A DNA stretch of 32,000 nucleotides, from the NCBI RefSeq assembly GCF_000018105.1, contig NC_009925.1, positions 6,030,001 to 6,062,000 on the forward strand, read 5' to 3'. The notes under the pieces are model-generated. The model had not been told where the DNA came from, made no database searches, and was given only the letters and a program-made list of their open reading frames with translations. Source of the DNA: Acaryochloris marina MBIC11017. Its GTDB lineage: Bacteria > Cyanobacteriota > Cyanobacteriia > Thermosynechococcales > Thermosynechococcaceae. Positions 111 to 21,748 of this stretch are shown here, in pieces. How positions within the stretch are numbered: position 1 is the first letter of the stretch; each line of letters begins with the position of its first letter. Both the position numbers and the translations under genes were made by a program.

Positions 111-886
111 GGTGAGATCAGAGAGATAAGCAACATCAGCACGATGGGCTGTCTTAATTAGGGATTTAATGCTCGATTGTGTTGATCAGCCATAGATCGT
201 TGATCTCTAATGCAGGAGAGGGTTTAGGGTGATGCTTGCTGCTGATATTATTTGGCAGGTGATGACAGATGCAAACTATCAACCCCCAAAAAGATCACCC
301 CCAATTGTGATTAAGGAGGTCAGTCTGGAAAGATGGATTTGTTTTTGTGTATAAATTAATGCCACTATTCCTGATGGAAATATCACCTAATGACTGATAC
401 CTCTGGCAGTAAATAACTTATGCCGAACCTATGAAAAAGATGCATAATTGATTAATATTTTTCCGAATAATATAGAAAAGATTATTTTTTGTTTCGAGTC
501 ACTGACTTCACCAGAATTTCACATATTATGATTTCAACTGAATGGTGATATCTGTCGTTGAGTGAATAGAACTGTTCTACATCGCCCAACTGTTTCAAAA
601 ATCAAGTAGTCGCGGCATCATCTTTTACTTAGGTGGGGGATCGGTTAGACTCCTTTTCTTGCCTTAAGTAAAGGGATGGTTTCTTGCGCTTCTACTCCTG
701 AAAAGAAGTCTTGTCTTTCTAGGAATTTTTATCGTGATACACCTTCCAAATCAGTACGAAAATTTTTGGTTGTGGGTTAAGAACTCAAAATGCCTCTAAT
801 ACTTTGTTAGTTGGTGAAGTTTTAGAGAATGTCATCTGCGTTACTGTTGCAGATGCTCTGTAGTGGTGTCTTATCCCTTGTTATCT

Positions 887-3469
887 ATGAAGAAGCAATA
901 TCAACGGGAACTTCTCTCGTATCTAAGCTGGCATCGATTATGCCTATCCCTGCTGGGTGTGGGGTGTATGTTCGCGATTACTGTTGTTTTTTCAGAAGAG
1001 AGGGTGTTAGCAGAACCTACTGAGCAGGTATGGGTTGCTAATACAAATAACTTAGAGCAAAGAGGAAAAGCTCTTTTTGACGCTAGACAATTTCCTCAAG
1101 CGGCTGATGTATTGCGCGCAGCTGTTGGACAGTATCAACAGCGAGATAATCGGGTGGGTGAAGCGATTGCTCTGAGTAATTTAGCGTTGGTTTATGAGCA
1201 GTTGGGACAATGGCCCGAAGCAAATCAGGCCATAGAACAGAGTCTTGAACTATTACAAGGGCAATCGACTCCTGAGGCAGGACAGTTATTAGCGCAGGTG
1301 CTGAACACTGAAGGGCAGTTAAAGTTGGCCCAAGGGCAAGCCCAGTTGGCATTGAAGGCTTGGCAACGATCAGAAGAGATATTTACACAGATTGGCGATA
1401 CAGAAGCAGTGACTCGCAGTCGGGTGAATCAAGCCCAGGCGTTACAGTCGATGGGGCAGTATCGCCGATCAATTAAAACCCTTAGAAAAGTTACGACTGA
1501 CTTGGCGGAGCAGCCAGATTCGTTGACTGAAGTGGTGGCGCTGAGAAGTCTGGGGGAAGCGCTCCGGGTGGCAGGCGAGTTGCCTGATGCGCGGGAAGCA
1601 TTGGAAAAAAGTGTAGAAATGGCTGGGCGGCTGGACTTGCTGAAAAATAAGGCTGCAGCTCAGCTAAGTTTAGGAAATGTGTTGAGGGCTGAAGGGGAGA
1701 ATGATCCAATGCAGTTGCAAGCTGCTTTGAGGATTTATGAGCAATTGGCCACTGAATCTGACGAAAGTCAAGTTCAGGCTTTTTTAAATCAGTTCAGTTT
1801 GCTGGTTCAAATGAAGCAATTTGCCCAAGCGGAGGGTTTATGGCCACAGGTTTCTGCCAGCTTGCAACAATTACCACTTAGCCGATCTTCAATCTTTGCC
1901 TATTTAAATGTGGTTCATAGTTTGTCTCAACTGCGTAGCACAAGTATGGACACGGTTGCGATCCGGGCGCAATTGTTCAGGCAGGCTTTAAAGCAAGCGA
2001 AGACTTTAGGGGATGGTCGGGCAGAATCCTATGTGTTGGGTGGGTTGGGTGCGTTGTATGAGGAGACGGGGCAATGGGCTGAGGCGGAACGGTTAACTCA
2101 ACAGGCATTGAAGAAGGCAATTAATGACCCAGAAATTGCATTTCGCTGGCAATGGCAGTTAGGGCGATTGCAAAAAGTGCAGGGGAATCGAGATAAAGCG
2201 ATTTCTGCATACTCTGGAGCGGTTCAAACGCTGAAGTTACTGCGGAAGGACTTGATTGCAGTGAACCCGGAAGTGCAGTTTTCGTTTCGGGATAATGTGG
2301 AACCCATTCATCGGCAGTTGGTGGATTTGCTTTTAGAAGTAGAGGAAGGACAGCCAAGTAGCAAGAACTTGGAGGCTGCACGCTTAACCATTGAATCTTT
2401 GCAGTTGGCGGAGTTAGATAACTTTTTTCGAGAAGCCTGTTTGGATGCAAACCCGGTAGTGATTGATGAAATTGATCCCAGGGCTGCAGTTGTTTATCCT
2501 ATTATTTTGCCGAAACGGGTGGCGGTAATTGTAAGTTTGCCGGGTAAGAAATTACGGTTATATTCAACTGAGGTTTCGTCAAACAAAGTAGAGAGGACAG
2601 TTGATAGGTTGCGGTTGTCTTTAGGGCAGCCCAATAGTACGAGATATTTAGCTCTTTCTCAGCAAGTTTATAATTGGTTGCTCCGTCCAGCGGAAGCTGA
2701 CTTTATCGATAGCAAAACGGAAACGCTGGTTTTTGTTTTGGATGGAGTATTGAGAAATGTACCCATGTCTGCCTTGCATGATGGTGAGAGTTATTTAGTG
2801 GAGAGATACGCAGTTTCTGTTACACCAGGGTTGCAATTGGTTGAACCTAAACCCTTAGTTTTAGATCAGGTAAAAGTGCTAACCGCTGGTTTATCTCAAC
2901 CTGTTCAAGGTTTTTCTGGTTTGCCTTATGTTGAATCCGAATTGAATCAAATTGGGACTATAGTTTCTAGCCGAAATTTACTCAATCAAGCTTTTACTAG
3001 GTCGGCATTCCAAAGAGAAGTAAGTACTGAACCTTATTCAGTGGTGCATTTAGCAACTCATGGTCAATTTAGTTCAAAGCTAGAGGATACCTTTTTGCTG
3101 ACTTGGGAGGATAAAGTTAATATTACTCAACTTCGCGATTTGCTGAGGACAAGGGAATTACGAAAGGATAGTGCTATTGAATTATTGGTGTTAAGTGCGT
3201 GTGAAACAGCAGTTGGAGATAGTCGGGCTGCTTTGGGATTAGCTGGTATGGCAGCGAGGTCAGGAGCTAGAACCACGCTGGCAACATTATGGCAAGTTGA
3301 TGATCAAGCCACGTCAATATTAATGGCAAGGTTTTATGAATTACTCAATATTAATGACATGTCAAAAGCTAGAGCGTTGCAAGTTGCACAAAAAGAAATG
3401 CTTATAAAATTAAACAGACAGCATCCAAGCTATTGGTCATCTTACATTTTATTAGGTAACTGGAAATAA
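887..3469 (+). CDS. Exported TPR-repeat / CHAT-domain (caspase-like Cys-His) protease
   Basis: Long ORF; I prefer ATG 887 (MKKQYQ...) over the track's GTG 863. There is an N-terminal hydrophobic signal/anchor segment (LCLSLLGVGCMFAITVVF). The middle holds degenerate TPR-like repeats (GEAIALSNLALVYEQLGQWPEANQAIEQSLEL; ESYVLGGLGALYEETGQWAEAERLTQQAL). The C-terminal ~300 aa has CHAT dyad motifs VVHLATHGQF (His codon 3059-3061) and LLVLSACETAVG (Cys codon 3200-3202), plus the tail YWSSYILLGNW. Confidence 0.9.
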   Translation: MKKQYQRELLSYLSWHRLCLSLLGVGCMFAITVVFSEERVLAEPTEQVWVANTNNLEQRGKALFDARQFPQAADVLRAAVGQYQQRDNRVGEAIALSNLALVYEQLGQWPEANQAIEQSLELLQGQSTPEAGQLLAQVLNTEGQLKLAQGQAQLALKAWQRSEEIFTQIGDTEAVTRSRVNQAQALQSMGQYRRSIKTLRKVTTDLAEQPDSLTEVVALRSLGEALRVAGELPDAREALEKSVEMAGRLDLLKNKAAAQLSLGNVLRAEGENDPMQLQAALRIYEQLATESDESQVQAFLNQFSLLVQMKQFAQAEGLWPQVSASLQQLPLSRSSIFAYLNVVHSLSQLRSTSMDTVAIRAQLFRQALKQAKTLGDGRAESYVLGGLGALYEETGQWAEAERLTQQALKKAINDPEIAFRWQWQLGRLQKVQGNRDKAISAYSGAVQTLKLLRKDLIAVNPEVQFSFRDNVEPIHRQLVDLLLEVEEGQPSSKNLEAARLTIESLQLAELDNFFREACLDANPVVIDEIDPRAAVVYPIILPKRVAVIVSLPGKKLRLYSTEVSSNKVERTVDRLRLSLGQPNSTRYLALSQQVYNWLLRPAEADFIDSKTETLVFVLDGVLRNVPMSALHDGESYLVERYAVSVTPGLQLVEPKPLVLDQVKVLTAGLSQPVQGFSGLPYVESELNQIGTIVSSRNLLNQAFTRSAFQREVSTEPYSVVHLATHGQFSSKLEDTFLLTWEDKVNITQLRDLLRTRELRKDSAIELLVLSACETAVGDSRAALGLAGMAARSGARTTLATLWQVDDQATSILMARFYELLNINDMSKARALQVAQKEMLIKLNRQHPSYWSSYILLGNWK

Positions 3470-3705
3470 CTTATTATGGTCACTAAAATCTCATTTTAAT
3501 CCCGAAAATGATGCTTATTATAAAGCTAGCAAAAAGTGCAGCTAATCGAAAACCACCATCCTCGGATAAAAATACTTTATTGATAGTAGATTTATAAAGC
3601 AGTTAATGTCTGGAATTTATAAAAACTTTTTAATAAAAGCAAGCAAGGTTAAATGTGAATGGTGTATTTTAAAGTTGTTTAAGTATTCATTAGTGAGGTT
3701 GCAAA

Positions 3706-4356
3706 ATGTCTAAGCATAGAAATATTTTTTCCCAGGTTTTGATATTTGTATTTGCATTGAGTTTACCTTTTCTAGCTTCTTCGGCAGCTCTAGCTTATGA
3801 TCAACCCTGGAAGTGTACTTCGGATTCTACAGCAACCCTATATGAATCAATCATACTAAATGATAGTGATTGTCCTCGCGAATGCTTAGATGAAAAGGAG
3901 GAGTGTCCATATAAATTCAAAGTAAAGCGTCAGAATACTCCTGATCCTAATGCTGCAACAGCTTATATACAGTTAGGAGATGAATTCTTACTTGGTGATT
4001 TTCGCAGACAGAAAGGGTGTGATACGAAGGAAAGAAATGAGCTTGCTTTAGAGGCATATCGAATAGCAAAATATGAATCAAGTGAAGCAAAAGATGCAAA
4101 AGAAGAAAGTAGTAATTTCTATTCATGGATTGCTGCAAGCTCTAGTATTCCCTATGTGAAAAGACGTATGGGTGAAATAAGCCAACCTGAAGCACAAAGC
4201 AGAATTGATGCTCTGTTTGATAAATACTGCTCTATAGCTGATGACAGTACTACTTGCGTTCTGTCTAAGAATCCCGTCTGTCCTGCCTTTAATAATGGGA
4301 TTAACAATGGATGGTATTTTGGTCCTCATTGCCGTCTATGTAACATACAGCCTTGA
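3706..4356 (+). CDS. Hypothetical secreted Cys-rich protein (216 aa), no recognisable family
   Basis: ATG start preceded by gtgaggttgc. Clear signal peptide (VLIFVFALSLPFLASSAALA|YDQ). About 12 Cys are in clustered pairs (DCPRECLDEKEECPY, TTCVLSKNPVCP, HCRLCN). It is followed by a 13-bp perfect hairpin. The region is AT-rich, so ORF calling is less certain than for its neighbours. Confidence 0.6.
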   Translation: MSKHRNIFSQVLIFVFALSLPFLASSAALAYDQPWKCTSDSTATLYESIILNDSDCPRECLDEKEECPYKFKVKRQNTPDPNAATAYIQLGDEFLLGDFRRQKGCDTKERNELALEAYRIAKYESSEAKDAKEESSNFYSWIAASSSIPYVKRRMGEISQPEAQSRIDALFDKYCSIADDSTTCVLSKNPVCPAFNNGINNGWYFGPHCRLCNIQP

Positions 4357-4439
4357 GTCCTACAACTCTTGTATGGCAGCTACAATTAGCTAGTTTTCTA
4401 AGTTGGATTTTATCCTTAATGAACTTATTGCTGTTGTTT

Positions 4440-4470
4440 ACTGTTGGAGAAGATAATCTTCTCCAACAGT
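4440..4470 (+). terminator. Perfect 13-bp stem / 5-nt loop hairpin downstream of the Cys-rich ORF
   Basis: ACTGTTGGAGAAG (4440-4452) ATAAT CTTCTCCAACAGT (4458-4470) are exact reverse complements. The trailing sequence TGTCCTATG is not a classic U-tract, so terminator function is uncertain. Confidence 0.4.
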
Positions 4471-4684
4471 TGTCCTATGTAAGATGCATCATATATAAGT
4501 CTCTTTAAATCCAAAGTATAAGAAGATGATGACTTATTTTAAATTGCATATTTCTTTTGATAATTATAATGTAATGTTTGATAAAATTAGCATTCTGAAT
4601 TTAGAAGAAATGTAATTTGAATGCATGAAATGAAGAATAGTTTCAAGATTTTAGATGAATTTATGTTGATTTTTCTTGCTTAAA

Positions 4685-7516
4685 ATGAGTGAAAATTCAA
4701 GAGTGAATAACTTTATATTTAGAACTCTATGTTTGATAAGTTTCAGTATGCCTTGGGGATGCTTATGTCATGCTCAAGTAGTTAGTGATAATACACTAAC
4801 AATTCCAACTGTAGTTTCCACCTCTGATGCGCAAAATTTTATTGTTTCTGGAGGTGTAATAGTTAACCAAAAAAACATATTCCATAGCTTCAGGAATTTC
4901 TCTATTCCTAAAAATGGTTCAGTAATCTTTAAAAATCTTTCTGTTGAGAATATTATTAGTCGAGTGACAGGTTCTAACCCATCGTATATTGATGGCTTGA
5001 TTACTGCTAACGCTAATTTATTTCTTGTCAATCCTAAAGGAATTTTTTTTGGTCAAGGTTCCCAACTCAATATTGATGGTTCATTTGTAGCAAGTACAGC
5101 TAATCAAATAAACTTTGAAGATGGCCATTTTTTTAGTACTCACACTAATGAAGCTCCTATTTTGACAATGAGCATGCCGACTGGTCTTCAATTGGGTAAA
5201 GATGCTTCTAGTATTGGTATTACGGGAGATTTTTTAGATCCTTTTCTGAGTGTTCAGCCAGGTAAGTCGTTGGTGCTCATTGGTAATGGTCTATTTCTCC
5301 AAGGAGGTGCTTTAGCTGCCCCATCAGGTAGAATTGAGCTGGCGAGTGTTGATGATTTTTCAGTTGTAGGACTTAAAAAAGCCTCTGAAGGATTTACTCT
5401 CAATTTTGATCCTGTAAAGAATTTTCAGATTATCCGCCTTTCAAAAGGTGCATTTATTGACACGTCTGATTTTTTTGCTGGGCCTATCCGTATATATGGA
5501 AAAGACATATCATTGGTGGATAGATCAGCAATCACAGCCTTTAACTTTATTGATGATTTACCTGGTGCGAGTATTAATGTCCAGGCTACAGAGTCTTTTA
5601 AACTTAGCAATCAGAGTTCAATTAGCGTAGGTGATGGGAATAATGGCAAAATTTCTATAAGTGCTAAGCGTCTTTCTCTTAGCGATTTTTCTATTATTGA
5701 TGCTAGTACTATATTCTTAGGCACGAAAGGTAGCATTATTATTAGGGCTTCTGAATATGTACTTATTGATAAAGGTAGTGCTATATCAGCCTTCACTACT
5801 GGTAATGATGCTGGTGAAATTTCAATACATACAGGGCAGCTTATTCTACGTGATGGTGGACAAATTGACAGTACAACGTTCTTTGGTGCTAAGGGTAATG
5901 CTGGAAATCTACTAATTGAAGCCACAGAATCCATAGATATATTTGGTCAAATAACAACTTCAAATGGTTTAACCTTTGTAAGTAATTTATTTGTAGGAAC
6001 TGCTGGATCAGGGACTACTGGCAATGGTGGAAATATTAACCTTAAAACAAAGCGTCTCTCTGTTACTAATAGCGGTACTATTTCTGTTGCATCTCTTCGG
6101 GGCAGTTTAGGACAAGCTGGTACATTATCCATCGATGCTTCAGATTATGTATTAATTGACGGGCAAGATACCGTCATTTCCGCTGAAAGTAGCAGCCCAT
6201 TGCCTGCTGGGGATATTACTATTAATACGGGATCCTTTCGTATTCAGAATGGGGCAACAATTTCAGCATCAACCACTGGTCCAGGTACTGCCGGAACCAT
6301 ACAAATTAAATCCGGTAGCTTCAGTGCAAGCGGTCCTTCGAGTGGGGTATTTACCACTACGACTAGCAGTGGAGCTGGGGGTGACATCATCATCGATACT
6401 CAATTATTCAAACTATTTGATCGGGCAGTCATTGATGCTCGTACAACTGATAGTGGAATCGGCGGGAACATCTTTGTCCAAGCAAATCTATTAGAAATTA
6501 GTTCTGGTGGTCAATTAGTGACTACTACTTCAGGTCCCAGCGCTGCAGGAAATATTTCCCTCCAGGTCCTAGATAGTATCGTCTTAGAAGGACGTGATAG
6601 TGGTCTATTTGCCAATACTGATCCAGGCTCCAATGGGCCTGGAGGGAATATTTTCGTCGATCCTCCTATAGTCATTATTCGTGATAATGCTGGGATTAGA
6701 GTTGATAGCCAAGGGACAGGGCCTGGAGGGAATATTGATTTACTGGCTGGTAATCTTACCCTGCAAAATGGCGGGTTTATTTCTGCCGAAACGACAAGCG
6801 GGCAAGGGGGGAATATCGGGCTGAGAATTAGTGATGTTTTGCAATTGCAAAATCAAAGCAGAATATCAGCCACCGCGGGTCGCAATGGAGAGATTGGCGA
6901 TGGGGGTAATATCAATATTTTTGCTCAATTTATTGTGGCGAATCCGTTTGAAAATAATGACATCACGGCCAATGCCTTCACCGGTACAGGTGGAAATATA
7001 TCCATCCAAACAGAGGCGATCTTTGGTTTTCAAGTGGTGGATGATTTGACCCCTTTTAGTGATATTTCTGCAAGTTCTCAATTAGGGTTATCTGGAACCG
7101 TCAGTATTGACACTCCTGAAACCGACCCCACTGAAGGATTAGTGGATCTCCCCGCTGCTGTCGTAGATCCTTCTAGTTTAGTGTCCCAGGCTTGTATCGG
7201 ACACTCAGGAGAACTTGCCAGTGAAATTAGTGAATTTACCGTTACTGGACGGGGAGGAGTACCCGCTAATCCAACGGAGACATTACGACAAAACTCGACG
7301 TTGACTGAATGGATTGCCCCTGAGGGCCAAAATACTTCAGCGACAAAGCCCTCCTCTAGAGTTGAAACGAGTCAGGTGACCGATAGTCCACACTTAATTA
7401 TCGAAGCTCAAGGCTGGAAAACGAATAAACAAGGTCAACTTGTTCTAACAGCAGAACCACAACCGCCTTTAGCTCATATTGCAGGACTAACCCAAGCTAG
7501 ATGCCCAAAAACTTAG
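4685..7516 (+). CDS. Filamentous-haemagglutinin N-terminal (TPS) domain exoprotein with beta-helix repeats
   Basis: I prefer ATG 4685 (MSENSR...) over TTG 4676. Signal peptide ends CLCHA|QVV. TPS-domain motifs: NIFHSFRNFSIPKNGSVIFKN, IISRVTGSNPSYIDGLI, ANLFLVNPKGIFFG. About 8 periodic G-x-GGNI coils recur every ~28-30 aa. They include an exact 18-nt direct repeat GGGCCTGGAGGGAATATT at 6635-6652 and 6719-6736. The C-terminal motif FTVTGRGGVPANP...EAQGWKTNKQGQLVLTA is typical of cyanobacterial members. No toxin-like C-terminal domain was recognised. Confidence 0.9.
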   Translation: MSENSRVNNFIFRTLCLISFSMPWGCLCHAQVVSDNTLTIPTVVSTSDAQNFIVSGGVIVNQKNIFHSFRNFSIPKNGSVIFKNLSVENIISRVTGSNPSYIDGLITANANLFLVNPKGIFFGQGSQLNIDGSFVASTANQINFEDGHFFSTHTNEAPILTMSMPTGLQLGKDASSIGITGDFLDPFLSVQPGKSLVLIGNGLFLQGGALAAPSGRIELASVDDFSVVGLKKASEGFTLNFDPVKNFQIIRLSKGAFIDTSDFFAGPIRIYGKDISLVDRSAITAFNFIDDLPGASINVQATESFKLSNQSSISVGDGNNGKISISAKRLSLSDFSIIDASTIFLGTKGSIIIRASEYVLIDKGSAISAFTTGNDAGEISIHTGQLILRDGGQIDSTTFFGAKGNAGNLLIEATESIDIFGQITTSNGLTFVSNLFVGTAGSGTTGNGGNINLKTKRLSVTNSGTISVASLRGSLGQAGTLSIDASDYVLIDGQDTVISAESSSPLPAGDITINTGSFRIQNGATISASTTGPGTAGTIQIKSGSFSASGPSSGVFTTTTSSGAGGDIIIDTQLFKLFDRAVIDARTTDSGIGGNIFVQANLLEISSGGQLVTTTSGPSAAGNISLQVLDSIVLEGRDSGLFANTDPGSNGPGGNIFVDPPIVIIRDNAGIRVDSQGTGPGGNIDLLAGNLTLQNGGFISAETTSGQGGNIGLRISDVLQLQNQSRISATAGRNGEIGDGGNINIFAQFIVANPFENNDITANAFTGTGGNISIQTEAIFGFQVVDDLTPFSDISASSQLGLSGTVSIDTPETDPTEGLVDLPAAVVDPSSLVSQACIGHSGELASEISEFTVTGRGGVPANPTETLRQNSTLTEWIAPEGQNTSATKPSSRVETSQVTDSPHLIIEAQGWKTNKQGQLVLTAEPQPPLAHIAGLTQARCPKT

Positions 7517-7620
7517 TTTTCCAGTGAACAGCGTATCTAAAATTATATAGTTCTGGATTAATGATCAAAGTTCCCAAAATTTTGATCAAATGGGCTCTTT
7601 ATTGTTAGATGACTCAATCT

Positions 7621-8376
7621 TTAAGGGTCAGTGCGGCAAACGGAACTTGACCATAAATCCAGACGTTGATTCATATTAATCGAAGATCCATCGGTGGAAT
7701 AAAGTATTTGAAATACATCTGACCACAGCCCTTTTTCCCCGAAATACTGGGCTGAGTTCAGGTCTGTATGCTTTTGTGAGAGTTTAGGATTTTGTGATTT
7801 CTTGACCTTGGCTAATTCAGCCGCTATCAGTTGACGCTCTGCTGATGGCATTACCTCAAACTCATATCGAACAGTCGTTTCAGAATTGGAAGCTTCCCAA
7901 ATATAGGCTTGCCCCGATTGCAAGGGCTTGCCATCGAATGCAACCTGTTCCTTGCCAGTTAGGTCTGATCTCTGCCAAATTACCTCATCTGTGTCATAGT
8001 CTCGCACCAGCAGATTAGACACTTCCCCACGCCATAAAAATAGAGGTTGACTGCTCCAGATTACATTAGTCTGACCCAATACGCCTGGAGAGATTAAACA
8101 AAGATTTCCCCTGCCCACCAAAGAGGGTTCCGGGCGCTGCTTAAACATCTCAAAAATACTGTTGAACACCGCCTCAAAAGTCGAAGATGTGGGCACATGC
8201 TTATCTTTCTTAACTTGACCGGACTTTGCAGATGTTTTTTGTTGATCCGTTTGCTTAGAACTAGAGTCTTGATGTGTAATAGGCTCTCGTTTTTCTTGCT
8301 TTTCCATTCCCCACACATGACTTGGGGAGGCCAATACTAATACTTGGAGTAAAATCAGCCAGCTCACTCTATGCAT
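7621..8376 (-). CDS. Secreted protein, DUF928-like
   Basis: Signal peptide MHRVSWLILLQVLVLASPSHVWG. A charged low-complexity linker follows. The core RGNLCLISPG...SSQPLFLWRGEVSNLLVRD...GKPLQSGQAYIWE matches my memory of the DUF928 pattern (R-G-x-x-C...P, P-x-F-x-W, L-x-x-G-x-x-Y-x-W). The start overlaps the upstream gene's stop by 8 nt. Confidence 0.6.
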   Translation of the reverse strand: MHRVSWLILLQVLVLASPSHVWGMEKQEKREPITHQDSSSKQTDQQKTSAKSGQVKKDKHVPTSSTFEAVFNSIFEMFKQRPEPSLVGRGNLCLISPGVLGQTNVIWSSQPLFLWRGEVSNLLVRDYDTDEVIWQRSDLTGKEQVAFDGKPLQSGQAYIWEASNSETTVRYEFEVMPSAERQLIAAELAKVKKSQNPKLSQKHTDLNSAQYFGEKGLWSDVFQILYSTDGSSINMNQRLDLWSSSVCRTDP

Positions 8377-10840
8377 AATCCCTTCCCCAATAATGTGAAA
8401 AACTGACGATCCAGACTGAAGCTAAGGGAAATAGACAAGGAATTAAAATCGCAGCACCAACAAAAAATTGCCAACTGATCATCACATATCCCCCCGTTAA
8501 GACTAATAGACTCAAGATAAGATGTACCCGATTAACTGGCAATATTATTCTCCGATCAACTAACAAAACGAAACCTTTTGCCAGCAATGCTAAGACGAAA
8601 ACCATTATTACAGTTGGGATAGGCACAACTAATCGCTGAGTGAGGAAATGTTGAAACATATAGGCATGGGCTTCACCCCCGGTATAGACTGATAGCCCTT
8701 CCGTATTAGCTTTTCCAACTCCCCTCTCTCTTACCTGCCAATACGCCATTGCTTTTGGAACTGCAAAATTATCCAGTACGCCATCATATCCTCCAGGAGC
8801 TAGAATCACCACTTGGTTTGAGAAGTCAGCTTTTTCCCCGAAAGCTGCTAAACCGTTCAATTGCCACGCAGGTATCCGCTGAAATACTCGATTAGCCGGA
8901 ATCGAAAAATCAATAATTGGCCGAAACCATAGTTGTCCTAAATAGCTTGCCCCAGTTGTTACGGGATGCGAAGTGAATTCTTTGAGAATCGAGATTTTCC
9001 CTTCTTCCTGAGAATCAGATTGCAGATTCGTCATTAAACGGGATTGCAATACCTCTTGCCCTTGCATGCTTGGCCTAATCTGATTATTGTCTGGAAACTC
9101 TTGTGAATAGGCAGATAGTAATGACAGCAAGTAACCAAACGGACAGGATTGTTCACAAGACTTGAATGAGTGAGGTAGCTTTACATGAGTGGGAAAAGCA
9201 TTTACATTACCTTCTAAGCTCCACTCAGGTTCAGCGATTCCTGTTTCTGGATTAACCCCTACATCTCCATTTATTGGATCAGATATAGAGGCGAATACAA
9301 ACCAAACTTTCTTGCGGTCAATCGCAGATCGGATAGATTGCCCTAAAACCTGATCCTTCTCTGGCTGCTGACGATCAAACAAGTAGTCAATGCCAATAAT
9401 CCGAGCATCCAAGTCAACCAGCCGATCAATTAGGCCAGCTAAATAAGCCCGATCCATCGGAACAGGTTGACTCATCTGAGATCGCCGAATCGACTCTGAA
9501 TCAATTTGTACTAATAGGACCGGAGGTGTTTCCACCGCTGCCGGAACCTGTCCAGTTAAATCTCGATAAATCGCTTGCGTCCACAGCCGATAATCCAATA
9601 GCACTGACTGCAAAGGGGGCCAAAGACTTAACCCCACCAGCAATCCCAACGCAATTCCTTCATATCGAGTGGGAAGCCAAGCCTTAAGGTTTTGTCGCCA
9701 ACTGGATGGGACTAGCCGAAAAGACTCTGTTTCAGGATGCCGAAAAAAAGATGGCACTAAATAAGCAGAAGGAAAACTGAGACTCTGCTCTAACTTAAGG
9801 TCCTGACTCGCAAGTCGCAATGCATCATGCGCATCTACATATTGGCTCAAGTGATGTAAAAACTGCCCTAGAAAAACCTGGGCCACTTGATTATGGATGG
9901 GCTCTCGCATGACGGCCACCTGACTTAACCCCAGATCAATCAAAGCGGCTGCAATACTCAAACCACTACAAGAATTAAAAATGGCTAACTGCAACCCCCT
10001 AGCCTGTAGTTTTTCTAGATAGGGTTTAATCTCCTTAATCGTGACCACTTCGCCAGGGGCAATAGCCAGCTCTCCCCCCGTCAACATCGTTTCATTGCTA
10101 TGCCCTGCAAAAAACAAAATATCCCACCCTTGGGGGTCTGAAATCGCCTCACAGATCTGTTGCTTTAGTTCGGGGATAGAAATTTGGGGTTGCCAACCGA
10201 CAAATTTCACCTCAGCTTGGGCTGCCAGCGACGTTATGGCCGCCAGGTCGGCCTGGAAATCCAACCCCGATTCATCGCCCATAATGGCCAACACTCGAGT
10301 TCGTCGCCGCCTGCGAGGAGGGGCCATCTGAGCTGCCCGTCGGACATTGACAGGGCAACGGGCAATCCGAATGTTGTCATCAGCTTCTGTTCCTAGCTCC
10401 CAGGTCTCCCAAGGTAAGCGAGCTAAATCAATCGGATCGCAAACTAAATAGACATCTGTTTTGAGGTTGGGGGCTGCCTGAGCCGATTTAGTGATCGCTG
10501 TCCTCAGTTCAAATAGAGCTGCACCACGCAACCATAGTTGAAACTGCTCTGTTAAGAGGGCTTCTGTCCGCACCAACTCACTTTGCCAGTCCACACCAAT
10601 CGGCGTGAGGCGTCCCTGAGCTTCCATGCGGCCTCGAATCGGGGTAACAGGCTCTGGGTGGGCAATGGCTTTATAGAAATTCAGGTAAGCCCTCAGCCAG
10701 GTTTGATAGGCCTTAGTGAGGGCAGTGGGATACTCAACTTGAGCAGATAAATGCTGCCCCTGGCCCCATGACAAATCAAACACACAAGCCTGGCCGATCT
10801 GCTGCACCTTAAGCCGAAAAGAAGGATGACTGCTGCTCAT
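8369..10840 (-). CDS. CHAT-CHASE2 fusion: membrane protein with cytoplasmic caspase-like protease domain and extracytoplasmic CHASE2 sensor
   Basis: N-terminal CHAT has DILFFAGHSNE (His247, codon 10100-10102) and LAIFNSCSGLS (Cys291, codon 9968-9970). A hydrophobic segment GIALGLLVGLSLWPPL follows. CHASE2 signature: PPVLLVQIDSESIRR...PMDRAYLAGLIDRLVDLDARIIGIDYLFD. There are C-terminal hydrophobic segments (VVPIPTVIMVFVLALLAKGFVLLV; LILSLLVLTGGYVMISWQFFVGAAILIPCLFPLASVWIVSF). No kinase, cyclase or GGDEF output follows the last helix. Confidence 0.85.
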   Translation of the reverse strand: MSSSHPSFRLKVQQIGQACVFDLSWGQGQHLSAQVEYPTALTKAYQTWLRAYLNFYKAIAHPEPVTPIRGRMEAQGRLTPIGVDWQSELVRTEALLTEQFQLWLRGAALFELRTAITKSAQAAPNLKTDVYLVCDPIDLARLPWETWELGTEADDNIRIARCPVNVRRAAQMAPPRRRRRTRVLAIMGDESGLDFQADLAAITSLAAQAEVKFVGWQPQISIPELKQQICEAISDPQGWDILFFAGHSNETMLTGGELAIAPGEVVTIKEIKPYLEKLQARGLQLAIFNSCSGLSIAAALIDLGLSQVAVMREPIHNQVAQVFLGQFLHHLSQYVDAHDALRLASQDLKLEQSLSFPSAYLVPSFFRHPETESFRLVPSSWRQNLKAWLPTRYEGIALGLLVGLSLWPPLQSVLLDYRLWTQAIYRDLTGQVPAAVETPPVLLVQIDSESIRRSQMSQPVPMDRAYLAGLIDRLVDLDARIIGIDYLFDRQQPEKDQVLGQSIRSAIDRKKVWFVFASISDPINGDVGVNPETGIAEPEWSLEGNVNAFPTHVKLPHSFKSCEQSCPFGYLLSLLSAYSQEFPDNNQIRPSMQGQEVLQSRLMTNLQSDSQEEGKISILKEFTSHPVTTGASYLGQLWFRPIIDFSIPANRVFQRIPAWQLNGLAAFGEKADFSNQVVILAPGGYDGVLDNFAVPKAMAYWQVRERGVGKANTEGLSVYTGGEAHAYMFQHFLTQRLVVPIPTVIMVFVLALLAKGFVLLVDRRIILPVNRVHLILSLLVLTGGYVMISWQFFVGAAILIPCLFPLASVWIVSFSHYWGRDYA

Positions 10841-12132
10841 GAGTTTTTATTGGAGGCGAATTTAAAAGGCGAAAGTCGTAAGGTTGCAGCGGGTGATCGC
10901 GAGTCTGCTGCTGACAAGGTCACCCAAAACTGTTCCTCAAACTCCCCGACCACTTGTGCATAAATACAAGTGTCTTCTTCCGTCGGGGTAAGCATCGGAT
11001 CTGCTAGCACTTTTTCGGTATCACTAACCAGAAGCTTCACTGTCTGTTCGAGTGTCGTTTCTGGTTTAGCACCGACAACAACAAGTAACGTCCATTCTGT
11101 GTTGGGTAAATTTGGTTCCACTGGCCAGACTATTGAATATAAACGCAGTTGAGAAAGTCCCAAGGTTAGATCCCGGTACGCCCCCCCCGCAGAAGTAGGA
11201 ATATCCATACCCTGTCGTTGTAACTCCCCAATCACCGCAACAATCACTGGATCCGTCGAGCGCAGGGCGGTTGCCAAGGGGGGCATCAGTATCCAACTGA
11301 ACTGCCGAGCGGCATCATCTAATCTATGTTGAAGCCATGCCCCAACATTTATCGGTTGCGCTGGTTCAGTGACTGGAACAATTGAATCCTGGGCTGGCTT
11401 ATGCTGCCAATACTCACTACACCACCTTAGCCAATCCGCGTTCCTCAAAATGGAGGCAGCTTCCTGCCAAGTAAACAATTGCCAAAATTCGGCACCTGAA
11501 CGAACTTGATCGAGCTTCTCTGTTAAGAGAGATTCAGTAAGAGCCGTAGATGTATGAGATTGTAGTTCTGGTTGTGGGACAGTCTCTAAACAACGCAACC
11601 ACAGGAGTAACTCATTGGCAGATGCAAACGCTTGGGGTGAAATCCTATAGGTCCAGTCCGGTTGTGGGATTAAAGACGGTAAAAGTTGAACAGCAACATC
11701 CCATCTCAATCCCCCCTGAATCTCTACCTGTGCTAGTTCTTCTAGGACGTCCACTTTCACAAAGCAGTGAGGAACAAAGCCTGCAATCTCTAGGGCGGCT
11801 CTGGGGATTGCCACCTCAGCATCAGCTAAGCCAGAGACTAACACTGCGACTCGCCATTCCCCAACCAATAGATAGCTGGCATCGCAAAAGGGTAGGTACG
11901 TGGTACCTAAAAAGGGACGAACCCTTACCCCTAGATAGCTCCGCTCCGCCAACCACGATTCCAAAGCTGTGAGCGCTAATCCATGGAGGTAACCTCGCCA
12001 TTGCCAGGCTTCTGGCAGCGATTCACTTTGCTGAATTGCTTCTGCAATCTGGGTCTCAGACAGTGAGATCGCCGTAATGGGCAGGGCGGTGAAGTCTGCT
12101 TTCAGGTCTGGGGGAGGGGATACGTCAGTCAT
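10837..12132 (-). CDS. Hypothetical cytoplasmic protein, DUF1822-like
   Basis: 431-aa ORF with no signal peptide. The N-terminal third (LPITAISLSETQIAEAIQQ...YLHGLALTALESWL...YLLVGEWRVAVLV...VAIPRAALE...HCFVKVDVLEELAQVEIQGGL) resembles remembered DUF1822 sequences. Its position between a sigma-like gene and a CHASE2 gene matches the usual DUF1822 context. Its stop overlaps the next start (ATGA, 10837-10840). Confidence 0.55.
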   Translation of the reverse strand: MTDVSPPPDLKADFTALPITAISLSETQIAEAIQQSESLPEAWQWRGYLHGLALTALESWLAERSYLGVRVRPFLGTTYLPFCDASYLLVGEWRVAVLVSGLADAEVAIPRAALEIAGFVPHCFVKVDVLEELAQVEIQGGLRWDVAVQLLPSLIPQPDWTYRISPQAFASANELLLWLRCLETVPQPELQSHTSTALTESLLTEKLDQVRSGAEFWQLFTWQEAASILRNADWLRWCSEYWQHKPAQDSIVPVTEPAQPINVGAWLQHRLDDAARQFSWILMPPLATALRSTDPVIVAVIGELQRQGMDIPTSAGGAYRDLTLGLSQLRLYSIVWPVEPNLPNTEWTLLVVVGAKPETTLEQTVKLLVSDTEKVLADPMLTPTEEDTCIYAQVVGEFEEQFWVTLSAADSRSPAATLRLSPFKFASNKNS

Positions 12133-12135
12133 GAT

Positions 12136-13542
12136 TCAGAGCGTCCTATCCAGATAATCACAGAGTCGCTGGGCATATAGGCTGCTCACGGGCCGATTCC
12201 GAGGGACACTGGCTTCGGCGGCAGCGGTCTGCATCACCCCATCGACTTGTTCAGTCAGGAGGGTATCGAGCTGTTTATTTAATGCGTGTAATCGATGAGG
12301 ATCGGCGAATGGTTGAGCGACTTGCCAAACCCGCTCCCGCAGGTCGAGTAAGATTTGATGGCGAATATCTGCTCTTAGGTCTTTGAGCTGAAGTAATCGG
12401 GTGACCTGATATTGGGCCTTCAGATCAATGCGAGGTGCAATATCGCTCATCGCCAACCCTTGGCAATGAAACAAAAATAAAGCTGTTAGATACTGATGAG
12501 ATTTATTAGATTTTTGAGTTTGGAATCTCTTGAGCTTATCTGCCAAAACGCCCTCTATGGTCTTGTCTAAACTCTGTTGGAATTGCTGTCGATACTGCTG
12601 TAGAAATTGTGTTTGAGAGTCTGGATCTTCATCTGAAGGGGGGGCAGCGATCTGCATTACCTGTCCAGTGGTCGGATGCAGCTGGTCCAGGGATTGGGTT
12701 GGTGCTGGCCCACCTCGGGCATAAATTCGATATTCACGCAGCAATCTAGCTAAATTCTGTAATTGACTTAGAACCATCTGGGGTTCAACTGGGTCAGAGT
12801 TGCTGATTCCGAATTGGGCAATTTGCTGTAGCTGAGAAGGAGAGGGTTCCCGACATCGACCTGTTTTTCCCGCTTGGCGCTGACGAACGCGATCGCGTCG
12901 ATATACAGAATGATATCTGTTCAGTAAGTTCACGTTGTGTTCGATTTCATGAGATGTGAGGGAGTGAAACTCTCCTAATATTCGGGATATCTGTTGAGGA
13001 GTAGTGTCGTTAAGAATTGCCCAATCACTTATGAGATAAACGCCATGTTCTAGCAGAAAAGTGTTGAGGCTATGGTCTCGGCGAACTAACTGAGCTGTCC
13101 AAGTTGATAGGCCTCCTTGTTTGATATCGAAAGAAGATAATATCTTTTCAATTAGAGACTGATATGAACTTTGGATTTGAGGTTGATTCTGGAGGTTTAA
13201 GGGGCCATGATCAAGCACAAAAGAGTAGAGATCCTTAGTCGTAAAGCCATGATCTTGGCCAAACTGAGCACAAAGTTGTCCACAAACTTGAGCAATCACA
13301 TTAGAAATAAAGCACTTCAAACATAGTCCTGCCAGCTCCTGATCACTGGTTTTTGCTTCTTCAGGATGAAGCCAAAGTTGAAATAAACGTTGCTGTAACT
13401 GATCGTCAGAAAGGGATGACTGATCCTCTGCTATTGACAACTGTGTTCGCAAAAATTGTTTAGCCGGCATTACGACTTCCACTTTTTTTTGACCCGTTGC
13501 GTCAATCCTCACCCATTGCCAGTAACGAAAGGCATTTCCCAC
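12136..13542 (-). CDS. Divergent sigma-70-family-like transcription factor
   Basis: The ORF starts at GTG 13542, with an in-frame alternative ATG at 13470 (MPAKQFL...). A C-terminal segment YLTALFLFHCQGLAMSDIAPRIDLKAQYQVTRLL looks like a sigma region 4.2 HTH. The N-terminal helix-rich part (LAGLCLKCFISNVIAQVCGQL...DLYSFVL...SDWAILND) resembles the sigma-70-family proteins annotated next to DUF1822 genes in cyanobacteria. The stop lies 3 nt before the DUF1822-like start. Confidence 0.55.
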   Translation of the reverse strand: MGNAFRYWQWVRIDATGQKKVEVVMPAKQFLRTQLSIAEDQSSLSDDQLQQRLFQLWLHPEEAKTSDQELAGLCLKCFISNVIAQVCGQLCAQFGQDHGFTTKDLYSFVLDHGPLNLQNQPQIQSSYQSLIEKILSSFDIKQGGLSTWTAQLVRRDHSLNTFLLEHGVYLISDWAILNDTTPQQISRILGEFHSLTSHEIEHNVNLLNRYHSVYRRDRVRQRQAGKTGRCREPSPSQLQQIAQFGISNSDPVEPQMVLSQLQNLARLLREYRIYARGGPAPTQSLDQLHPTTGQVMQIAAPPSDEDPDSQTQFLQQYRQQFQQSLDKTIEGVLADKLKRFQTQKSNKSHQYLTALFLFHCQGLAMSDIAPRIDLKAQYQVTRLLQLKDLRADIRHQILLDLRERVWQVAQPFADPHRLHALNKQLDTLLTEQVDGVMQTAAAEASVPRNRPVSSLYAQRLCDYLDRTL

Positions 13543-13617
13543 AATACGTTTAACTCTTCATCTCTGCTGTCCCTCATTATTTCATCCACTTTTAGCAGCG
13601 TTTAAGAAGCTATAGAA

Positions 13618-13837: not shown

Positions 13838-16800
13838 TTAAAAGATAACCTGGGGTTGTTTAGCCTGAGCAAAGTACCGTTCGAAAGCAGACTTTAACTC
13901 ATCCACACGAATGGGTTTACTGACATAGTCATGCATTCCTGCTGCCATACACATTTCCCGGTCACCCTGCATGGCATTGGCAGTTAACGCAATAATATAG
14001 GGCTGCTCCTCTTCCTGCCACTGTTCTGTGATGTGCCTGGCTGCTGTTAGGCCATCCATCTCTGGCATTTGCACGTCCATTAACACGACATCGTAGGATT
14101 GGCGATGCAGAGCTTCTAGGACTTCTTCGCCATTGTTGGCTACATCTGCTCGGTAACCCAACTGTTTGAGAATCAGTAGCGCCACTTTTTGATTGACGAC
14201 AATATCTTCAGCTAACAGGATTTGCAGGGATGGATCACCCTGTTCTTCGGTATTAACTGGAGAAGGTACAGTGGGTTTAACTTGAACGCGCTGACCTTCA
14301 AAAATTTCTGCTAAGGCGTCGTACAAGTAGGATTGCTGGATGGGCTTATTGAGAATGGCAGAAAATTGAATTTCTTGCTTATGTTTGATAATTTCGTCTT
14401 GTCCCAAGGAACTGAGCATGACGAGGGGAAGGTGTTTCCTCTGATCGAGTTGGCGGATATGTCTCGCCAATTCGACACCATCCATTTCTGGCATTTGCAT
14501 ATCCAAAATCGCCAGATCAAACTTGGAATCACTTTCAAGGAGAGCTAGGGCTTCGGCTCCCCCGCTCACCGTTTGAATCCCCATGCCCCAGGTTTGGGCT
14601 TGTAGGGTTAAAATTCTGCGATTTGTGGGATTGTCATCCACCACCAGGAGCTGCTTCCCATCGAGGAGTTGTTGAGATTGATCGAGGGTATTTTCTCCCT
14701 CAGGGGCCACTGGCACCGCAATGGTAAAGAAAAAGCTTGACCCGACCCCGGCTTTGCTCTCGACCCAGATTCTGCCTCCCATCATTTGAGAAAGAGAGCG
14801 ACAGATGGCTAATCCTAGGCCGGTGCCACCATATTTTTTGGTGGTTGAGGCATCAACTTGGCTAAAAGATTTGAACAAACGATCCATGCGATCGGCCGGA
14901 ATGCCAATGCCTGAGTCTCTGACTTCAAATTGAATCAAACGGCGTTGATTTTGAATATCGGTAAAATTTTTCCGCTGGGAGGTTGTCTCAGGTTGGGTGA
15001 TGTCCGTATCGGTGATGTCCTGCACATAGATTACGACTTCCCCTTGCTCGGTAAACTTGACGCCGTTGGTGAGGAGGTTCACTAGAATTTGGCGGAGACG
15101 AGTGACATCCCCCACGATGTGATTGGGGGTCGAGGGATCGAATAAGTAAGCGAGTTCGAGCTGTTTATCAATGGCTCTTGGCGCAACTAGACGCAGGGAT
15201 TCTTCAATGCAGGCCCGTAGGCTAAAGGGTTGTTCTTCAAATTCCAACTTACCCGCTTCAATCTTGGAGAAGTCGAGGATGTCGTTGATCAGGGTTAACA
15301 GCGCATCCCCACTGCTTCGAATGGTTTCAACGAAATCCCGTTGTTGATTATCTAAAGTGGTATTTAGCAACAGTCCCGTCATACCAATGACCGCATTCAT
15401 GGGGGTGCGAATTTCGTGGCTCATAGTGGCTAGAAATTCACTCTTAGCAACGTTGGCTGCATCAGCATCTTTTCGAGCTTGTTTCAGGGCTGTATTGTTC
15501 TGAGTCAGTGTTTGGCGCTGCTGTTGTTCCTGTTCAAGGAGATGACCATGGGCTAGGGCGATGCCGACTTGTCCAGCAACAGCTTCGATGAGTTCAATTT
15601 CGGCTTGGGTCCAGTCCCGTTTGCGATCGCATTGCTGTAGCACTATCACCCCATTGGCTTTGCGCTGATAGGAGGTACGAATGGCTAGCATGGACTGAAT
15701 TTGGCCTTGTTCACAAATGTCTGAAACAGGTTGAATTAAGGGATCCCCCAGGGCATTGTCTGAGGCAACGGCCCGATCATGACGGAGTACCTTGCGGGCA
15801 TGGGGATTATTTTCCAACTGGATGTCGGTGCCGAGCATAGACGGCACCTCTCCAGTCAGGTATTCTGCAACGATGGGCAGATGGGGGTTAGGGTCGGTAA
15901 CGTAGGTATGGAGATGGCATCGACTGACCTGAAAGGTTTTGCCAATTTCTTGAACCGTGGCTTTAAAAATTTGTTGACGGTCTAAGTTTTTACGAATCTT
16001 ACGGGTGATTTTCTCTACCAATTCAGCCCGACGCATTTGCTGTTTGAGGGCTTCGGTGGCCGCTTTGGTTTCTGTAATATTGCGAATAGAGCCTGCCATA
16101 CGGGTGGGCTTGCCTTCAATGTCCCAGATGGCCTGGCCACGGCCGGAAACCCATAGGTAATAGCCTGCTTTCGATTTCAGGCGATACTCTACTTCATAGG
16201 GGACCAAATGTTCTAAGTGATGTTTGAGGGCCAAGGAGACCATCTCTTGATCATCGGGACAAATATGGGCTTTCCAGGTTTCTAACGTGCAAGGCAATTC
16301 TCCATCTTCATATCCCAACAATTGACCAAACCGGGGGGACAGATAAAAGGCTTTGTTGACGATATTCCAATCCCAGAGGACGTCACCGGATCCCTTGACC
16401 GCCAATTGAAACCGTTCCTCGCTTTCCTTTAAGGCGGCATCTGCTTGTTGGCGCTCAATAATTTGTTGTTGTAGCTGAGTTCGTTGGGCTTGCTCCTGTT
16501 CCAACAGTTCTGCTTGGGCTAGGGCAATACCGATTTGGTCTGCAACCGTTTCTAATAGGTCGATTTCTGCTGTGGACCAGGATCGAAAACAGTCTGTATA
16601 GGCCTCGGGTTGAGCCAGGTAATCTTCACGAGACAATCTGCGATCGCAATGCTGAAGGATAATTGCGCCATTGGGTTTTCCTTGATAGGACGTACGCACC
16701 CCTAACATTGACTTCAAGGTCACGGGCTGAGGATCCGAAATCAGGGTTTCTAGTAACCGATCGGTGTAGATATTCGGGGTTGTAACGGCTTGATCTTGGG

Positions 16801-21600: not shown

Positions 21601-21748
21601 AGGACGGTACTAAAATAAAGACCTCGGCAATGAGGCAGCTTCCTAACCCCATCATGCCAATCTGACGACCCAGTGGAGAACGAAGGGGGGGTAAACATTG
21701 TTTCAGACCATCAATCAGGCTAAACTTTGATGAATTCAGCGGCTGCAT
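18632..21748 (-). CDS. Hybrid sensor histidine kinase (2 TM + periplasmic loop, HAMP, HisKA-HATPase, REC, REC, HPt)
   Basis: TM1 is [20 protein letters not shown] and TM2 is [17 protein letters not shown], with a ~130-aa loop between them, followed by a HAMP-like segment. The kinase core has His[16 protein letters not shown] (His codon 20852-20854) and HATPase_c (DTGIGIP...GGTGLGLAI). Two receivers each carry DMQMPEMDG / [10 protein letters not shown] Pro/Ser-rich linker follows. The C-terminal HPt motif is [18 protein letters not shown]. Confidence 0.92.

Follow-up and report, generated by a model that had tools for sequence, protein, structure and literature searches.

The closest described relatives of the locus studied here are the systems defined in silico by Kaur, Iyer, Burroughs and Aravind (eLife 2021, PMC8195603), in which a constant N-terminal EACC2 domain is followed by a caspase domain and by variable C-termini that include CHASE2, and whose core unites an EACC2-caspase-CHASE2 protein with an extracytoplasmic function (ECF) sigma factor and a DUF1822 protein. 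These authors proposed that a stimulus induces autopeptidase activation with a transcriptional output, placed such systems among apoptosis- and immunity-like conflict systems, and included in their source data two relevant neighbourhoods that cover the wider gene neighbourhood (PMC8195603). A 2010 survey had reported a caspase-like protein with CHASE2 in Trichodesmium. Our literature search found no genetic or biochemical study of these genes, and the literature searched contained no paper that treats CHAT domains together with TPS or filamentous haemagglutinin. Here we analyse a 32,000-nucleotide (nt) stretch of Acaryochloris marina MBIC11017 (NC_009925.1; hereafter the window, to whose positions all window coordinates refer), in which an earlier note, made from the sequence alone, had described seven consecutive open reading frames (ORF1 to ORF7) as one envelope module with no assigned function. 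It is well supported that the window holds a TRADD-N-independent member of the system of Kaur et al., with its EACC2-caspase-CHASE2 protein, sigma factor and DUF1822 protein, and likewise well supported that this system is extended by a secreted DUF928-like protein and adjoins a cassette for a TPS exoprotein and an exported TPR-CHAT protease. The claim that no function had been assigned holds for experiments, but the core, with essentially the same mechanism, had already been proposed computationally (PMC8195603).

All seven ORFs were recovered with the coordinates and strands first reported for them. Four occupy the minus strand, where ORF7 (12136..13542 (-), 468 amino acids (aa)) is the first gene, followed by ORF6 (10837..12132 (-), 431 aa), ORF5 (8369..10840 (-), 823 aa) and ORF4 (7621..8376 (-), 251 aa). 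The earlier note had seen in them a tightly coupled operon converging on the plus-strand genes, and the junctions bear this out: ORF7 and ORF6 meet at TGA-ATC-ATG, ORF6 and ORF5 share an ATGA overlap, ORF5 and ORF4 overlap by the 8-nt start/stop sequence ATGCATAG, and 104 nt lie between the operon and the convergent ORF3. The domain labels proposed for these genes fared unevenly, with TPR-CHAT, TPS, CHAT-CHASE2 and DUF1822 all above Pfam thresholds, DUF928 below the cut-off for ORF4 itself but recovered at the level of its family, and the sigma-like label of ORF7 absent from domain libraries but recovered through a homologue from another locus (L151). We followed conservation in two sets of loci: 80 anchored on ORF7 relatives (L001-L080), with one genome per species, and 80 metagenome-contig loci anchored on the TPS gene (L082-L161), of which the 26 of at least 18 kb were used for feature counts. 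The ORF7-anchored loci all carry cyanobacterial titles, except for one metagenome-assembled genome (MAG) labelled Candidatus Sericytochromatia (L034) and a few MAGs titled 'uncultured bacterium', and their named hosts are mostly filamentous or baeocystous.

The protease at the centre of the operon, ORF5, consists of an N-terminal module, a CHAT domain (Pfam 4e-11, residues 185-352), a transmembrane segment (396-414), a CHASE2 domain (8.1e-18, residues 400-751) and three further transmembrane segments (743-812), with no N-terminal signal, a layout that predicts a cytoplasmic CHAT part and a periplasmic CHASE2 domain. Both residues of the Cys-His dyad are present (Cys291, with His247 upstream), and the CHAT His and Cys are kept in 42 of 49 members of the ORF5 family. 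The N-terminal 378 aa are covered to 98% in more than 100 homologues, nearly all of which carry CHAT with or without CHASE2, and a region of about 180 aa at the N-terminus is conserved along with CHAT. The N-terminal module would correspond to the EACC2 domain of Kaur et al., an assignment made because proteins in their source data show the same architecture.

ORF6 matches DUF1822 (Pfam 3.2e-18), and a DUF1822 gene lies directly 3' of the sigma-like gene in 67 of the 72 loci in which this could be evaluated. Components of the operon also appear joined in single proteins: P0329 (907 aa) is an apparent sigma-like::DUF1822 fusion, P0190 (561 aa) an EACC2-CHAT::DUF928-like protein without CHASE2, P0318 (774 aa) combines CHAT with a sigma-like part, and P0341 is a further apparent fusion; all four could be genuine, or could stem from frameshifts or assembly errors. 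A hidden Markov model (HMM) of TRADD-N, made from 29 cyanobacterial sequences of the Kaur et al. alignment, matched none of 87 DUF1822-family ORFs, ORF6 included; a TRADD-N domain in ORF6 was rejected on this ground, and the system of the window is thus of the TRADD-N-independent type. We regard ORF6 as the near-obligate partner of the sigma-like protein, for which it may serve as an anti-sigma or an adaptor.

ORF7 has no match in Pfam, NCBIfam or PDB sequences, whether searched as a single sequence, as a 40-sequence profile or through 40 homologues scanned singly. A HMMER search of 1.84 billion representative proteins delimited its family as 686 representative clusters at E<=1e-3, and relatives occur in 398 species-representative genomes, the family appearing to be confined to cyanobacteria; the named matches are all annotated as hypothetical, and the best 150 of the 686 matches all fall inside the family, with no bridge to canonical sigma factors among them. 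The AlphaFold2 (AF2) model has a pLDDT of 80 over the full protein and of 86 over residues 40-285. Searched against the PDB with Foldseek, the full model returned SigA/SigS chains at ranks 2-6 and residues 40-285 returned them as nine of the ten best matches, all of them sub-threshold (E 0.1-3.5 and TM-score 0.15-0.30, none at E<=0.001; for residues 40-285 specifically, E 0.5-3.5 and TM-score 0.24-0.30), so that the ranking is no more than suggestive of a sigma-like fold. An hhalign comparison of the ORF7 family with a small SigA/FliA/RpoD profile was collinear and not significant (E=0.14); it paired FDP..TW with KFD..FSTYATWW and SLDxP with ISLETPIG, and brought the region 4 helix-turn-helix (HTH) into register. 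A homologue search made to enrich this profile gave almost only cyanobacterial RpoD of 97-100% identity.

The assignment comes instead from paralogous clusters reached through the TPS gene, in which a long sigma-70 protein recognised by Pfam lies directly 5' of DUF1822. The sigma of L151 matches Sigma70_r4 (4e-8, residues 309-351) and Sigma70_r2 (9e-4), that of L101 matches r4 (9e-11) and that of L123 matches r2 (5.7e-6). By hhalign, the ORF7-family profile aligns with the L151 sigma along 197-236 columns, which begin at FDP..TW inside the weak r2 match and run from the tail of region 2 through region 4 (Prob 84-91.5%, E 7e-6 to 9e-7); by hmmsearch, the same profile scored 10 bits over the Sigma70_r4 domain of L151, with a per-sequence E of 1e-5. 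Because ORF7 is homologous to Pfam-verified sigmas that hold the same gene position in paralogous clusters, we consider it a very divergent sigma-70-family protein, an identity that the bridging homologue supports only indirectly. The L151 alignment supports a predicted region 4 HTH in ORF7, and is only suggestive of region 2 (core binding and -10 recognition), for which ORF7 has no Pfam Sigma70_r2 match. In two Leptolyngbya-like loci, L045 (4283-4906 (-)) and L033 (9027-9512 (-)), a gene for a small LuxR/GerE-type HTH protein with Sigma70_r4_2-like matches stands between the sigma-like gene and the divergent TPS gene; the window has no such gene.

Upstream of the sigma-like genes we found a conserved leader element, consisting of the perfect extended Shine-Dalgarno sequence GGAGGTGA, about 8 nt and then TTG or ATG ('GGAGGTGA[AC]ACAATTG'). 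It is present in 26 of 77 upstream regions, 47-250 nt before the gene, and what follows it varies among a start-stop (TTG TAA), mini-ORFs of 2-3 codons, longer upstream ORFs (uORFs) and continuation in frame with the main ORF. Of 52 exact copies of the GGAGGTGA octamer in 2.43 Mb, 21 fall within these 19 kb, a 51-fold enrichment. The operon leader of the window (13509..13597 (-)) contains a degenerate copy of the element at 13575-13597 (-) and a 22-codon uORF at 13509-13577 (-), which overlaps the GTG start of ORF7 out of frame. A search upstream of ORF1-3, made in case the motif marks a promoter or regulon common to these genes, did not find it there. In L005, L011, L017, L019, L028, L031, L039, L040 and L073, the sigma-like gene has another, clade-specific motif, CAGTAGTGATACTAGATGA, some 35-45 nt ahead of its ATG, which may be a -10-like promoter element.

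The last gene of the operon, ORF4, encodes a secreted protein whose N-terminus is signal-like by inspection and which scores 15.6 bits against Pfam DUF928 (PF06051; E=0.014), below the 26-bit cut-off. We extracted 31 orthologues located 3' of CHAT-CHASE2 genes and aligned 20 of them with ORF4; DUF928 is matched by 15 of the 21 proteins tested, the best at 1.6e-7, and an iterated HMM of the family recruits canonical DUF928 proteins such as that of L090 (Pfam 1e-51). The alignment contains a signal peptide, an invariant R89 within a G-S-R-G..C motif and the conserved residues Cys93 and Cys247; canonical DUF928 proteins likewise show G-[ST]-R..C immediately behind their signal peptide. ORF4 is a distant member of DUF928, and 'DUF928-like' is a fair label for it. 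Of 30 loci with a complete CHAT-CHASE2 gene, 29 have a DUF928-like gene on its 3' side, and the 8-nt start/stop overlap between the two genes recurs in the distant lineages represented by L045, L066, L015 and L108. Translationally coupled to ORF5, ORF4 may serve the CHASE2 sensor in the periplasm as a partner, a ligand or a substrate. Elsewhere, in L066 (3110-4987 (-) and 934-3117 (-)) and also in L048, DUF928 forms the C-terminal domain of an HTH-STAND (NB-ARC/NACHT) NTPase that adjoins TPR-CHAT, indicating that the partnership of DUF928 with CHAT is broader than the CHASE2 context.

On the plus strand, ORF1 (863..3469 (+), 868 aa) encodes an exported TPR-CHAT caspase-like protease, of the kind that usually accompanies TPS exoproteins in genomes, with Pfam matches to TPR repeats and CHAT (4.4e-57), a signal-like hydrophobic segment at residues 26-44 and a dyad of Cys780 (codon 3200-3202) with His733 upstream; this codon and Cys291 of ORF5 are exactly the catalytic cysteines that had been named beforehand, each preceded by a His. 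ORF2 (3706..4356 (+), 216 aa) is a small Cys-containing protein with an N-terminal hydrophobic, signal-like segment, no match in Pfam, NCBIfam or PADLOC and no homologue in 160 related loci, in agreement with its earlier description as a secreted orphan. It lies within a low-GC stretch (GC content 0.33-0.37 at 3000-6000, versus 0.44-0.52 elsewhere in the window) and is only 23% identical (E=0.001) to its positional counterpart in the close relative L081, whose other genes are 93-99% identical; we conclude that ORF2 is a hypervariable orphan. ORF3 (4676..7516 (+), 946 aa) is a beta-helical exoprotein of TpsA type with a TPS domain (Pfam 5.5e-51), a match to the haemagglutinin N-terminal domain TIGR01901 of NCBIfam (6.6e-20) and an N-terminus that is signal-like by inspection, and has 351 relatives in metagenome contigs. 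That an exported protease is encoded beside the TPS gene suggests processing. TPS proteins carry a conserved F.VTGRGG.P motif (ORF3 residues 857-861) some 89 aa before their C-terminal end, of which TGRGG is found in 44 of 102 relatives. We rejected the view that this Arg is a strictly required protease site, since variants with K, Q, T or S occur and many relatives have no such motif; G-R-G-centred motifs, at the C-termini of the TPS proteins and the N-termini of the DUF928 proteins, could be processing sites in which the Arg is not universal.

As to how these components act together, we favour a mechanism in which a transmembrane caspase-like protease, in place of DegS/RseP, carries out the regulated proteolysis of a partner that resembles an anti-sigma factor. 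We infer every step of this mechanism and judge its chances to be evenly balanced; our confidence in what the system is remains much higher than our confidence in how it works. At rest, DUF1822 would keep the divergent sigma inactive in the cytoplasm, while the CHASE2 ectodomain of ORF5 and the co-translated periplasmic DUF928-like protein would sense an envelope or surface cue, perhaps one that reflects the condition of the TPS exoprotein or of DUF928 itself, or how the exported TPR-CHAT has processed them. The signal would pass the membrane and switch on the cytoplasmic CHAT protease, whose target would be DUF1822, the sigma-like protein or the EACC2-CHAT boundary of the protease itself, and the freed sigma would steer RNA polymerase to a dedicated regulon. 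Domain architecture, membrane topology, the catalytic dyad, the coupled operon, a gene order conserved in many cyanobacterial genera, the apparent fusions and the extracytoplasmic placement of both CHASE2 and the DUF928-like protein all support this mechanism, which for the core is also what Kaur et al. predict (PMC8195603). The anti-sigma-style logic in particular is plausible, given the near-obligate sigma-DUF1822 pairing, the P0329 fusion and the experimental precedents for CHAT or Lon proteases that act on proteins bound to sigma factors (PMC9825189, PMC12642450). In a more elaborate relay, TPR-CHAT would cut TPS, DUF928 or both at the G-R-G motifs, the CHASE2-DUF928 complex would read the product, CHAT would destroy DUF1822 and free a sigma of a hitherto unrecognised sigma-70 subfamily, and surface status, cell-cell contact or kin recognition would thereby be coupled to transcription in multicellular cyanobacteria, with the leader mini-ORF as a translational gate; so specific a chain of events seems to us distinctly improbable.

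Several observations weigh against the proposed proteolytic mechanism. The sigma identity of ORF7 depends on a bridging homologue, the direct tests being sub-threshold. A CHAT-CHASE2 orthologue follows the sigma-like/DUF1822 pair on its 3' side in 23 of 42 evaluable loci; in the other 19 (about 45%) the pair stands alone before unrelated genes, so that the protease would be no more than an input that the pair can do without, and perhaps an output. A TPS gene of the ORF3 subfamily lies within 10 kb in only 6 of the 59 sigma loci of at least 12 kb, and such genes are not significantly enriched in class B versus class A, a comparison of sigma loci with and without CHAT-CHASE2 (Fisher p=0.2). The 32-kb window has no TpsB gene (tblastn E>0.3; no ORF in bases 1-862). 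Finally, the left arm, on the TPS side, looks recombined: a recombination-like breakpoint lies inside the TPS gene near 5671 (window ~2442-5671 compared with L081), to the right of which the DNA is 96% identical to L081, and to the left of which the TPS secretion domain is 53% and TPR-CHAT 79% identical.

The loci in which the pair stands alone would suit an arrangement in which the sigma-like/DUF1822 regulator answers to some other cue and CHAT-CHASE2, the DUF928-like protein, TPS and TPR-CHAT form its regulon for envelope remodelling or proteolysis. The position of the other genes downstream in the same transcription unit agrees with this, and the strong Shine-Dalgarno sequence and start-stop mini-ORF of the leader element hint that the sigma gene is under a separate control of its own after transcription. 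The fusion of a membrane sensor with a cytoplasmic protease is, however, an input-type architecture, the precedents of Craspase/Csx30/RpoE and RseA put the protease upstream of the sigma, and the CHAT-sigma and sigma-DUF1822 fusions suggest physical contact; we hold it very unlikely that the protease is an output of the sigma rather than its input.

The scarcity of TPS genes near the sigma-like genes, together with the breakpoint that parts the diverged left arm from the conserved right part, raises another explanation, namely that two independent neighbours have come to lie side by side: TPS and TPR-CHAT, with or without ORF2, as a surface adhesin or exoprotein with its maturation protease, and the minus-strand operon as an unrelated signalling unit. 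Seen from the other anchor, this sigma subfamily is found in only 1 of the 80 TPS-anchored loci, and dedicated maturation proteases of TpsA proteins are known, those described for FhaB being SphB1, DegP and CtpA (PMC6070651, PMC8263021). Set against this are the contents of the 26 long TPS-anchored loci, which include a full-length exported TPR-CHAT orthologue beside TPS in 14, an ShlB/POTRA_2 TpsB in 8, DUF928 in 12, a CHAT-CHASE2-like gene in 11, both of the latter in the same 11, and DUF1822 in 5. CHAT-CHASE2-like genes number 16 in 1.00 Mb of TPS-anchored loci versus 0 outside the anchored operon in 1.22 Mb of sigma-anchored loci, a co-occurrence above background that the earlier note had put forward for checking. 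In Stenomitos (L045), Microseira (L066) and a metagenome contig (L108), TPR-CHAT and/or TPS follow directly after the DUF928-like gene on the same strand, and L090 repeats the convergent layout of the window, with a TpsB added, as TPS/TpsB/TPR-CHAT facing DUF928/CHAT-CHASE2/DUF1822/sigma, although its genes belong to paralogous families undetectable by tblastn. On this evidence we consider mere adjacency of two unrelated units unlikely, and note that the association with TPS is clear only from the TPS-anchored scan.

The claim that the gene set recurs, often with an ShlB/FhaC-type gene, is borne out. The layout is repeated in L090, L151, L101, L086 and L108, some of which use paralogous families unseen by tblastn, and TpsB is present in L090 and L086 but not in the window. 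In related loci the ShlB/POTRA_2 TpsB gene lies between the TPS and TPR-CHAT genes, and it adjoins ORF3 relatives in 18 of the 80 TPS-anchored loci. The idea of a single seven-gene module, by contrast, did not survive the counts of loci without CHAT-CHASE2 and without TPS. Because the parts occur separately yet co-localise above background, the region is best described as three separable pairs, sigma-like with DUF1822, CHAT-CHASE2 with the DUF928-like protein, and TPS (with or without TpsB) with TPR-CHAT, which are co-localised far above chance.

Immunity offers a further interpretation, in which the locus is a latent-effector or death system: CHASE2 would detect envelope damage or phage, CHAT would cut off its own EACC2 module or attack many cell proteins, the product would be a toxic effector, and sigma/DUF1822 would only tune expression. 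Kaur et al. placed these systems among apoptosis- and immunity-like ones and proposed autopeptidase activation, and the analogous EACC1 is a pore-forming effector set free by its fused caspase, as shown experimentally (PMC12642450). The fusion of DUF928 to an HTH-STAND NTPase beside TPR-CHAT (L066) points the same way, as does the hypervariability of ORF2 and the left arm between close relatives. To our knowledge, EACC2 is not homologous to EACC1, which counts against carrying the analogy over. No PADLOC defence model matched ORF2-7, the operon proteins among them, and ORF1 gave only a generic TPR match and a weak BovA match; the neighbours are housekeeping-type signalling genes conserved with the relative, with no obvious defence island, and the fact that sigma and DUF1822 are almost always paired speaks for an output in transcription. 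A role in conflict therefore appears improbable to us, and we retain regulated proteolysis of the DUF1822 partner as the preferred reading.

The operon is immediately preceded by three genes for signalling proteins, which are about 99% conserved in L081 and take their Pfam labels from its precomputed annotation: a GAF/PAS hybrid histidine kinase that has two receiver domains and is joined to an ammonium-transporter (Amt) domain (13838-18586 (-), 1582 aa), another hybrid kinase, which carries an Hpt domain (18632-21748 (-)), and a response regulator-PAS-GAF-PP2C (SpoIIE) protein (22193-24298 (+)). Farther right, transposase-like ORFs or fragments, judged by sequence only, are located at 25468-26157 (+) and 30468-31013 (-) and suggest mobile-element activity in the right half of the window. 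Scans of the window with promoter and terminator consensus sequences gave counts equal to the expectation from shuffled sequence and were uninformative.

We conclude that the cluster is real and widespread, and that its core and wider neighbourhood had already been catalogued computationally. To this the present analysis adds the proposed sigma assignment of ORF7, reached by way of paralogous clusters, a DUF928-like gene as a near-obligate fourth member, numbers for the association with TPS, TpsB and TPR-CHAT, the modular three-pair structure and the conserved leader element. With about 690 clusters and a presence in about 400 cyanobacterial species, the ORF7 family would constitute a sigma-70 subfamily that domain libraries miss and annotation calls hypothetical. 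If the mechanism is true, it would be a new route from the envelope to RNA polymerase, in which a single transmembrane caspase-fold protease acts on a sigma-sequestering partner; it would also give functions to two long-standing DUFs, DUF1822 and DUF928, and a reason for the cyanobacterial pairing of TPS exoproteins with exported CHAT proteases. Cys291, Cys780, the ORF6-ORF7 pair, the CHASE2-DUF928 pair and the leader element are testable targets.

Compared with the system of Kaur et al., the window shares an intact His-Cys CHAT domain, a CHASE2 sensor with transmembrane segments and adjacent sigma and DUF1822 genes. It differs in that its DUF1822 protein has no detectable TRADD-N domain, as in the TRADD-N-independent type. 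The sigma gene is divergent enough that, in their one comparable neighbourhood, from Fischerella, the gene 5' of the DUF1822-family gene is marked only '??', and their text is silent on the near-obligate DUF928-like fourth gene and on the statistical link to TPS and TpsB found here. ORF3, with its bona fide TPS domain and beta-helical passenger, and the exported protease encoded alongside it, resemble the TpsA/TpsB pair FhaB/FhaC; the differences are that the window encodes no TpsB and that its protease has a caspase fold (CHAT) instead of being a subtilisin or HtrA. EACC1 proteins likewise combine a constant N-terminal component, a caspase and variable sensors, whereas EACC2 is another domain, fused in cis, associated with a sigma factor instead of being a death effector that acts alone, and with no known pore activity. 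In the E. coli RseA/sigmaE pathway (DegS, RseP) and in CalpL-CalpT-CalpS, an envelope or danger signal leads to proteolysis of a sigma-sequestering partner whose gene adjoins that of the sigma (PMC9825189, PMC12642450); here, unlike RseA and CalpT, the putative anti-sigma DUF1822 is predicted to be soluble and is unrelated, and a single transmembrane caspase-fold protease would do the cutting. In the type III-E CRISPR Craspase, the TPR-CHAT protease Csx29 cleaves Csx30, a protein that binds RpoE, a sigma factor (PMC9825189). Neither a CRISPR array nor Cas7-11 (gRAMP) is apparent in the window, among whose ORFs only histidine kinases reach the size of Cas7-11, no dedicated scan for CRISPR repeats having been made. 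The two systems would have in common a sensor-activated CHAT protease and the cleavage of a sigma-binding protein, and ORF1 shares the TPR-CHAT architecture of Csx29, but the sensor here is a periplasmic CHASE2 domain and not an RNA-guided complex, the candidate substrate is DUF1822 and not Csx30, and ORF1 is exported and not cytoplasmic. If the proposed mechanism holds, the logic of Craspase and CalpL, in which a protease licenses a sigma factor, would extend to non-CRISPR envelope sensing in multicellular bacteria.

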